64,000 nt of DNA from Chiloscyllium plagiosum (lineage: Eukaryota): contig NC_057718.1 of assembly GCF_004010195.1 (NCBI RefSeq), forward strand, positions 37,194,337 through 37,258,336, given 5' to 3'. Of this stretch, positions 14,717 through 17,915 are shown piece after piece (within the stretch, counting starts at the first letter, position 1; each line of letters opens with the position of its first letter). The notes under the pieces were generated by a model that made no database searches, had not been told where the DNA came from, and saw nothing but the letters and a program-made list of their open reading frames with translations. The position numbers and the translations under genes are program-made.

Positions 14717-16351
14717 AAAACCCCTCTACCTTCTACCAACAGCTATGGCCATAGCACCAATCACACAGTCTCACCACGGTTTATTTTCTGATTCAGGAAT
14801 TATTTAAACAAGTGCTTCCTGAACTTTTCCCCACTGTGACCTTATATCAAGGCTTGAAAATTGTCATGAGCCCTCAGTGAGGACTGTGAGAGGAGAGTAG
14901 GAGGGTAGGGGCTGGAACCTGTTCAAGCCAGAGTACGACTGCTTTAACTCAGATTGAGCTGTGTGGCAGCCATTGTTGCCTCAGAGCTCAGGACTCCAAC
15001 CTTTCAGCTCAAATCTCCACTTGGAATCCACCTCCCTAACCCACACCCAACTTTGGGAAGCCCTGACATAAACAGTCTTCAGTCGGGATTTAGGATGAGT
15101 GCAATTTACGTGGGCACCAACGTTGACACACTCATGTAGCAATAATAACCAAAAATCTTGTTATTTCTCCTTTTGCGTTTTAGAATCACTGAAATGATAC
15201 ATCACAGAAGAACAACTTTCAGCCCATCATGCACCTGTGAGCACTTTTGCTGATGCTTCAGCTAGAATTTGGGGACGGGCAATAAATTTGGGGACTCAGC
15301 CAGCGATACTCAAATTCCATGAATGATGTTTTCAAAAGCCCCTTCATCCGCCCTTTTCTTTCACCATTGCAGGGTTTTATTTCCAAGTATTTATCCATTT
15401 TCCATTTGAAAACTGTGGTAAATCCACTTCCACCATCCAATCAAACATTAACAGTCCAGGTCATAATAACTGACTGCAGAAACATTTTCTTCTTCAAGTA
15501 ATCCCGAGTTCTTCTGTCAATTACATTAAATCTTTATGGTTTGATCCTATGGCATGGAAGCTAAGCACCATAGCGATGACAGCAGCTTTAAGATGAGCTT
15601 CTCAGTTATTTGTAAATCAGCTTACAGAAGATAATGCAATGCACTTCCTCTCATGTGAAGGGGAATCACTGAAGAGGGGTCTGCTTCAAATATCCGGACA
15701 ATAGGGGTATGATTTACAAGAATAAGCCCTTGAGCTTGACTGGACCAAACCCCCAATGACATCCATTTGAACGTGAAGCTGTGGGTCCTTACAAGTCATT
15801 TTTTTTCATCCAGTTTACACAGAGCCAAGTAGATTCTGAATTGGATTCCCATCCTGTTAACTTAATTAGCTGTCGACCCACACTGAAGCAGCAATTTCCT
15901 CAACCCCAAGAAAATATACCTCTGCAAAGTGACTGAAGCCTGCACCATTAAAGTCATAAATATGGAAGAAACAAAATGTTATATACTAAATACATAAGTC
16001 CAAAATTTCTCAACTGAGAAAGTAAGTCATGCTTCTTTACTCAAACAAATAGCATCACCAAACTGGCTTTAAAAAACACCAACATCGGCGTCTCCAAATC
16101 ATGTTTTGCAAATAATGAGCAATCACCTGGAGAAATGGTCATGTAACAATGCAGCAGCAGGTTATTGAAACACTTGACAGGTGTAGTTGTCAATCACTTC
16201 TCAAGCACCCTCTGAGATACTAAGTGCTTTGAACAGCACTCAATGGTTGGAGCTGTTCATTGTAACTTATCAAAGCCTTCTGAGTTTGTCCATTTCACTG
16301 AAGAAGCTCTTCTCACTGTGAACTTACTATAGTGAAACCAGTTTTTTTCTC

Positions 16352-16810
16352 GATTTGGAGATGCTGGTGTTGGACTGGGGTGTACAAAGTTAAAAATCAC
16401 CCAACACCACGTTATAGTCCAACAGGTTTAATTGGAAGCACTAGCTTTCAGAGCGCCACTCCTTCATTCAGCTTTGCAGAGGTATATTTTCTTGGTGTTG
16501 AGGAAATTGCTGCTTCAGTGTGGGTTGCAGCTAATTAAGTTGACAGGATGGGAATCCAATTCAGAATCTACTTGGCTCTGCGTAAACTGGATGAAGAAAA
16601 ATGACTTGAATGGACCCACAGCTGATGAAGGAGTGGCGCTCCAAAAGCTAGTGTTTCCAATTAAATCTGTTGGACTATATTTTGGATTAGTGGTGCTAGA
16701 AGAGCACAGCAGTTCAGGCAGCATCCGAGGAGCAGCAAAATCGGTTATAGTCCATCAGGAAGGGTTTTTACCTGTTGGACTATAACCTGGTGTTGTGTGA
16801 TTTTTTAGTT
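16352..16810. mobile_element. Composite Penelope-derived terminal element: inverted family-B arms enclosing captured local DNA, plus a family-A piece
   Basis: Arm 16413-16471 is the reverse complement of arm 16622-16679; insert 16472-16623 is an inverted copy of 15777-15929. Confidence 0.75.
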
Positions 16811-16849
16811 TTTTTCTCCCCTGTCAAGTCGCTTCCGATTTACATCTGC

Positions 16850-17915
16850 GATTCCTCGGATGCATTTCATCAGTTGCAGAACTTCCAGTTTGCAGGCTCA
16901 GTTGTCTCCTCTTTACCATAGACATGCAATCTCTTCACACTTCTATCCCACGTGGGGATGGTCATGGGGCTCTCTGTTTCTTCCTGCAAAAAAGGTCTGA
17001 ACCGTCCCCATCCACTGCCACCCTCCTCTGCCTGGCCGAGCTTGGCCTGACTCTGAACAGCTTCTCTTTTAACTCCTCTCACTTTCTTCAGGTTAGAGGG
17101 CTGGTCATGGGTACCTGCATGGGCCCCAGTTAAGCCCATCTCTTTGTGAGGTAGGTAGAACATACCTTATTCCAATCCTATTCCAGCCCCCACCAACAAC
17201 TCTTTCTCTGGTATATCAATGATATCACTGGTACTTCCTCTCTCGTCCATGATTGGAAAAGTTTATTAATTTCACTTCCTGTTTCCAACACACTCTCACC
17301 TTCATCTGGTCTATCTCTGACTCCTCCCTTCCTTTCCTCGACATCTCTGTTTCTATTTCTGGGGATAGGCTGGCCAACGATATCCACAACAAACCCACTG
17401 ACTCCCACAGTTACCTTCACTACACATCTTCACACCCTGCTTCCTGTATAGACTTCACTCCATTCACCCAGTTCCACTTTCTCCGTCACATCTGTTCTGA
17501 TGATGCCAGTTTCATCAAGGGAGCCTCCAAAATGTCCATCTTCTTCCTCAACCCAGGATTCCCACCACCATTGTTGACAGAGCCCTCAGCTGGGTCCAAC
17601 CCATCTCCCGCACTTCAGCCCTCACCCCTCTCTTCCCTCCCACAACAGCGAAAGGGTCCCCCAGAAGATCATTGGCCTCTATTAATGCCACCTCCAGCGA
17701 GATGCCATCATCAGACACATATTCCCCTCCCCCCCTTTGCCAGCCTTTCACTAGGACTGTTCATTCCAGGATACCCTGGTTCCCTTCTCCTTCACACCCA
17801 ACACCCCCCAGGGACCCATTACACCTTCCCCAGCAACCGCAAAAGACCCTGAGCATTGTTGCCTGCCATTTCAACACACTACCATGTTCCCTGGTCAATT
17901 TCTCTGTCTCAGGAT
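16850..17915 (+). mobile_element. Penelope-like element RT pseudo-ORF
   Basis: SLHTSIP, GLVMGTCMGPS, WYIND (YIDD-like), LPFLDISV, KPTDSHSYL and VACHFN are motifs of Penelope RT and the downstream GIY-YIG region; stops and frameshifts present. Confidence 0.8.

Follow-up and report, generated by a model that had tools for sequence, protein, structure and literature searches.

How does a stretch of unique genomic DNA come to stand a second time, inverted, between two head-to-head hammerhead-bearing arms in its own neighbourhood? The question arises at one locus in a 64,000-nucleotide stretch of the Chiloscyllium plagiosum genome (hereafter the window), for which the initial annotation proposed that a Penelope RT or repair synthesis had switched template onto nearby DNA during insertion, leaving a TIR-like cassette and a possible route to transduction. 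The cassette is one ordinary Penelope-like element (PLE) insertion, consisting of a long arm with a tail, a short arm and a 12-bp TSD. We think it probable that, within this single insertion, the arms were bridged by a copy of DNA lying 410-563 bp away, through microhomology-primed synthesis during sealing. The observation is real and is a variant of known processes; new here are the class-level count of such captures, their geometry and a test of their age.

The cassette and the source of its centre

Global alignment of the segment between the arms against the reverse complement of its source gives 8 differences in 153 positions (7 substitutions and 1 gap), with a gap of 542 bp between source and copy (Table 1). 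The inverted copy with about 8 differences in about 152 bp, and the spacing of about 540 bp, are thus as first described, as is the position of both junctions at the 5' edge of CTGATGA, with CT common to copy and arm at the right junction. The worry that the segment might itself be multicopy is not borne out, given that a search of the 3.56-Gb genome, in which very common words were skipped, found the source in 2 places only (2 of 2 candidates scored). As in other templated insertions, the segment inside the TSD duplicates nearby genomic DNA, and the source is retained.

Table 1. Coordinates of the features at the window locus
Feature	Position	Strand	Basis or remark
Source segment, unique genomic DNA; its end lies 410 bp left of the insertion site	15777..15929	+	Alignment, genome search
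Imperfect microhomology TGACTGAAG versus element TGATGAAG, adjoining the source	15930..15938	+	8/9 match
Stray ~25-bp 3' terminus, same family as the arms, outside the TSD	16079..16103	+	Continuous contigs in organisms B and C
Left TSD AGTTTTTTTCTC, 12 bp	16340..16351	+	Direct repeat
Long arm: PLE pLTR 3' end, minimal hammerhead core, ~35-bp tail (about 16352-16386)	16352..16471	-	
Inverted copy of 15777-15929, bridge between both arms	16472..16623	-	Alignment, relatives' junction contigs
Short arm: core to second start site, without tail, split by nested insertion	16622..16806	+	16622-16623 (CT) common with the copy
Nested TSD, first copy, 13 bp CTGTTGGACTATA	16667..16679	+	Direct repeat
Nested 3' fragment, second hammerhead repeat family	16680..16742	-	
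Junction patchwork of the nested insertion	16743..16771	.	17-bp inverted flank copy (16743-16759) plus ~12 bp like the second family's core (origin of these last 12 bp read by eye)
Nested TSD, second copy, 13 bp	16772..16784	+	Direct repeat
Right TSD AGTTTTTTTCTC, 12 bp	16807..16818	+	Direct repeat

The arms are the pLTR of an EN+ Penelope-like element. The locus has the layout of such insertions, namely an inverted 5'-truncated copy, a 30-40-bp tail on one arm and a TSD. The description as TIR-like does not hold, since these are the usual unequal PLE arms, the long one reaching ~35 bp beyond the mirror of the short one. A TIR DNA transposon or MITE was rejected on the same inequality of the terminal repeats, which recurs in the family: long plus short is the commonest layout, found in 74 of 119 scored cassettes (121 examined).

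At the window locus the element is 5'-truncated, without its GIY-YIG ORF, and both hammerhead cores are mutated. Longer family copies (L029 and L059) carry an upstream ORF with VYLI...WYIGET, a GIY-YIG-type motif, and the linkage of arm to ORF was read from position in L020/L065. The top matches of the ORF in a protein atlas (score 0.95-0.96) belong to clusters in which 12-27% of the members carry GIY-YIG and 55-90% carry HTH_animal; Pfam returned nothing significant for five ORF fragments. Judged by their letters, family copies contain a putative minimal type I hammerhead (CAC-CTGATGA-A-GGAGC..GCTCC-GAAA-GC-TA-GTG), and stem II forms in the predicted fold of the core. The core shows the hallmarks of minimal hammerheads given in the available part of PMC4209133, which are an extra nucleotide between 9 and 10.1, a G10.1-C11.1 pair and a palindromic 15.2-16.2. 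An Rfam scan of the window at gathering score gave 0 matches. Elsewhere in the window, a decayed ORF fragment on the + strand (17253-17849) looks by eye like the PLE RT-to-EN region and like the ORF of L029; it has no Pfam match.

Contigs from relatives carry the same junctions. The segment continues into element letters at the right junction in Logan unitigs X1 (organism A) and X9 (organism C), and at the left junction, without the window's extra A, in Logan unitig X6 (organism B); X14 has the source alone. The overhangs in A, B and C are 25-28 letters, below the 31-letter bridging standard, and among the relatives' contigs examined none spans the whole cassette. The insertion is carried by organisms A, B and C, and an empty site, sought in the contigs of B and C, was not seen. 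Given that flank contigs with the insertion present differ from the window at 14-16 letters in ~500 (organism B) and 26-27 in 534 (organism C), the insertion is old and shared. At 15819, 15875 and 15905 the source letter in relatives is the letter of the window's copy, so the changes there came later, in the window's source.

The stray terminus reported at about 16079-16103 is present and is inverted relative to the long arm. It is probably a separate truncated insertion. Its role as the outer end of the cassette insertion was ruled out, as the TSD abuts the long arm; no TSD around the stray terminus was found by eye. The letters before it are TTAAAAA, and the terminus may represent a very small twin-primed joint between both start sites.

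Head-to-head pairs and local captures across the genome

Head-to-head pairs are the norm in this family. An inverted partner accompanies 15 of the 29 best other copies, and exact-pattern searches find 2557 pairs with 0-55 bp between the cores and 975 with 56-406 bp, the second pattern demanding 6 more exact bases than the first; reversed-pattern controls gave 0 pairs. Because the space between the hammerhead cores is at most ~55 bp in most pairs, a junction at the core edge reflects a hotspot shared by the whole family, and the special meaning that had been attached to junctions falling "exactly" at the core edge is lost. The junction as a ribozyme cleavage site was also rejected, given that the inferred cut lies ~30 nt downstream. 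TSD scores of at least 8 occur in 77 of 119 cassettes versus 9 of 300 mismatched flank pairs, and the ends of the arms cluster at two sites ~35 bp apart, 0 and -31 to -38.

Some details of single cassettes bear on where cDNAs start and stop. The predicted RNA fold of L118 contains a stem formed by GGTGTTGTG, close to the second start site, and the ~11 nt immediately upstream of the core; its position coincides with the stopping hotspot of the cDNA, which the stem may cause. In L133 and L166 (2 of 242 arms) the arm ends at -89, the inferred hammerhead cut, and looks as if the 3' end of a cleaved RNA had served for priming.

The initial annotation called for comparing the spacers of other inverted pairs with nearby DNA. 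Element sequence was masked in each spacer and the spacer's own flanks were searched, with other loci as controls; the search covered 1.5-4.5 kb of flank, so that more distant sources fall outside it, and had a detection floor of 28-40 bp, so that very short near-site templates are uncounted. Local captures were found in 17 further cassettes among 152 examined, which makes 18 with the window. A first set yielded 2 of 31; a second gave 9 raw matches, 5 of them kept, in 41 loci (49 rows less 8 duplicates); and 31 loci picked by eye (16 of 42 from one list, 15 among 100 rows listed of 159) gave 11 raw matches, 8 of them kept. The least biased set, the first places among the 975 pairs with 56-406 bp between cores, yielded 2 of 49 (exact 95% interval 0.5-14%). 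Extrapolating 2/49 to the 975 pairs, over ~3500 pairs, gives a local capture rate of roughly 1-2% of inverted cassettes.

Across the 18 cases the captures are 55-358 bp long, and their sources lie 52-1592 bp from the nearest arm end (median ~585 bp). The source is on the long-arm side in 8 and on the short-arm side in 10. The inverted orientation first described for the window recurs, in 11 of the 18 with the window included, but is not obligatory, the other 7 being direct. All four combinations of orientation and side are seen, as expected if either cDNA end can use either flank. Many junctions show, by eye, 2-5 nt of microhomology or short iterative filler; an automated microhomology count was set aside because self-matches and mutations distorted it. 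Among the 17 other templates, five (L094, L158, L188, L237 and L239) are repeats, retained on account of their high local identity, and the copy in L167 is only 72% identical to its source.

Several candidates were dropped from the count: L165 (29 bp, in a nested context), L096 and L168 (satellite context), L087 (a high-copy repeat matched by 55 of 120 control loci) and L191, L198 and L199 (repeat matches of 70-84%). L113 and L169/L034 are duplications within or between cassettes, and L159, L160 and L097 include chance 12-mer "arms". L192 and L235 were assessed as candidate distant or re-mobilised captures, and the spacer of each occurs once in the genome; L235 reads as two facing separate insertions. 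The spacers of L193, L135 and L139 have no local source in the flanks searched.

Two further loci have unusual structures. About 283 bp left of the spacer of L049 (G000:C38:16897064 region) lie a 22-nt stray terminus and ~150 bp of untraced DNA, inside the TSD and before the long arm, which look like an aborted first cDNA start of the same insertion. In L202 (G000:C6:66729395-66729695) the second family forms a near-perfect palindrome. Its centre, 279 bp long, folds back on itself in turn and begins with letters repeated at the right flank.

Formation of the bridge

In the course of events that we favour, the PLE protein would cut both strands 12 bp apart, and two cDNAs would be primed, one per element start site, giving the long and short arms. 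Both would stop a little beyond the hammerhead core, in the zone where cDNAs of this family commonly end. The end of the long-arm cDNA would not anneal directly to the other cDNA but fold back onto its own flank strand at the microhomology adjoining the source, which we infer to be its priming site, and be extended by ~152 nt; the new end would then anneal to the short-arm cDNA via CT, and the gap would be filled. Host Pol theta, Pol delta and the PLE RT are candidates for the polymerase. The second family inserted into the short arm later. The fold-back step is not unique, as a short-arm cDNA that invades the duplex and copies towards the break gives the same product. Of the template switch or repair synthesis originally proposed, templated copying within a single PLE insertion stands, given the one TSD, the microhomology at both junctions, the 17 other cassettes and a copy age that tracks arm age.

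With the insertion present in organisms A, B and C, the case for a one-step origin is built on the TSD and on divergence, a measure with only coarse resolution in time. Over the 18 cases, the more the arms differ from each other, the more the copy differs from its source (Spearman 0.69 without CpG, p = 0.002; 0.72 overall), a correlation that supports captures that would have formed during integration. We consider it unlikely that the palindromic PLE insertion came first and that a later break at its centre was patched by host repair with a local templated copy. Such a history has its attractions: palindromes are known to be prone to breakage, near-perfect palindromes with a short centre make up most of the cassettes (the 2557 pairs), and both window arms stop at the core edge and are shorter than most, which is what trimming would produce. 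The window copy is also nominally less diverged than the arms, which would fit later capture, both in a hand count of non-CpG changes (5/152 versus 4/78) and in an automated count (3.8% versus 9.4%), but the difference is not significant (Fisher p = 0.49 for the hand count). More generally, copy divergence follows arm divergence and is not lower when non-CpG changes are pooled (copies 7.1%, arms 5.6%), so the copies are not younger, and captures are already present in the youngest cassettes, such as L188, where the arms are identical at 89/89 positions and the copy matches at 102/103.

Improbable, in our judgement, is a jump of the PLE RT from element RNA to a nascent host transcript of the locus (or flank DNA) and back, which would place the origin of the capture in the RT instead of in host repair. 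The accessible part of PMC3846280 proposes template jumps for PLEs, and copies of 55-358 bp fit a processive enzyme. A structure that a jump out and back would give is found in L020/L065, where the immediately adjoining 3' flank has been copied in inverted form over 226 bp; the copy starts at the element's 3' junction and replaces ~35-40 nt in the GIY-YIG coding region, between co-directional element pieces. L020 is, however, a single case without an identified TSD, and repair at a later time could also have produced it. Spliced templates were not seen among the captures, and L233 points the other way. Its spacer, read by eye, is a patchwork of a direct copy from ~750 bp away and an inverted copy. 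The inverted copy extends from the short arm across the TSD to the flank; its template was therefore DNA that already held the element. That the assembly is at fault here, or that two separate insertions came by chance to lie on either side of a repeat, is very hard to credit. The short overhangs and the lack of a contig across the whole cassette would allow it, and chance pairs do exist in the pattern sets (L159, L190 and L235), but the copy differs from its source at 8 positions, the segment has two copies genome-wide, the junction letters occur in three organisms from three studies, and one TSD surrounds the cassette.

A wider reading, that 1-2 kb of flank is routinely laid open by PLE integration and that it is the PLE RT that moves from RNA to local DNA and returns, seems doubtful. 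If true, PLEs would be a systematic source of local direct and inverted duplications of 50-350 bp, far longer in range than reported for L1, and the head-to-head insertions, as yet unexplained, would have left a record of their resolution in the junctions.

Known systems and the meaning of the captures

The comparisons that follow draw on portions of the papers cited. EN+ PLE insertions are described with an inverted pLTR, a 30-40-bp tail and a TSD (PMC8557442, PMC3846280), and the window cassette is like them in its short TSD, its head-to-head arms, one of them ~35 bp longer, and the minimal hammerhead that the arm contains. In vitro, an Anolis PLE cuts both strands and extends them from two start sites (PMC11167929); the two arm-end peaks ~35 bp apart and the long plus short layout match this activity. 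Capture between pLTRs has been noted without a local source (PMC3846280), and the available text of PMC8557442, PMC3846280 and PMC11167929 neither traces captured DNA to the neighbourhood of the insertion nor gives a rate, whereas here the source is local in 18 cases. We found no description of local templated capture in PLEs in the open-access literature, supplements being outside the scope. The available part of 10.64898/2026.07.22.740005 is not relevant to the junctions.

The favoured reading resembles, by analogy, L1 templated insertions and R2 snap-back, and would reach farther than reported for L1. L1 twin priming likewise joins two cDNAs from both target ends by microcomplementarity, and L1 templated insertions also copy non-element genomic templates into the insertion (10.1101/2024.08.27.596794, PMC11702581). 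Their rate is of the same order, 22 among ~3,600 L1 insertions (10.1101/2024.08.27.596794) against our extrapolated figure for PLE cassettes. L1 templates, however, are typically <250 bp and within 15 bp of the site (10.1101/2024.08.27.596794, PMC11702581), unlike PLE templates, which are up to 358 bp, come from a median of ~585 bp away and sit at the inner junction between two element 3' ends. In R2 snap-back, before joining, the 3' end of the cDNA primes further synthesis either on the cDNA itself or, more rarely, on target DNA (rDNA) close by; R2 differs in having one cDNA, an engineered system and a fixed rDNA target (PMC11371274). Pol theta insertions are similar in being flank-templated, primed by minimal homology and left with iterative patchwork junctions, but are generally <25 bp (PMC12426944). 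At 17 bp, the copy within the nested insertion is of such a size; Pol theta fits poorly with the 152-bp copy and with the captures as a class.

Similar patches recur at other insertions in this genome, and the likely reading is therefore that repair leaves such scars routinely as an element inserts, rather than that host DNA is mobilised in a novel way. The suggested route to transduction found no support in the three of the 18 captures for which further copies were sought: none has a third copy, the window segment and the L234 capture occurring in 2 places genome-wide, and the L188 capture having one 99% local source and 27 other matches that are partial or at most 81% identical over >75 bases. 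A transduction or Pack-type cassette is unsupported, and the captures do not demonstrate gene capture.

The window locus alone is a dead fossil, and its significance lies in the class. The formation of PLE tandem and inverted structures is called undefined in the accessible part of PMC8557442, and the captures bear on this open question. The long plus short cassettes with TSDs, which number in the thousands, match a two-strand, two-start-site activity known in vitro, and the captures suggest that the inner cDNA ends were free to use DNA on either flank as a template, in either orientation and at distances of up to ~1.6 kb, which yields a testable prediction for de novo PLE insertions. The captures would also be a minor source of local micro-duplications.

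The nested insertion offers a small parallel. This second-family insertion (16680-16771) sits in the right, short arm with its own 13-bp TSD, and its fragment ends at the second family's inferred hammerhead cut or 1 nt past it, judged against a consensus from contig loose ends. The fragment is followed by the 17-bp inverted flank copy, which looks like the main event in miniature.
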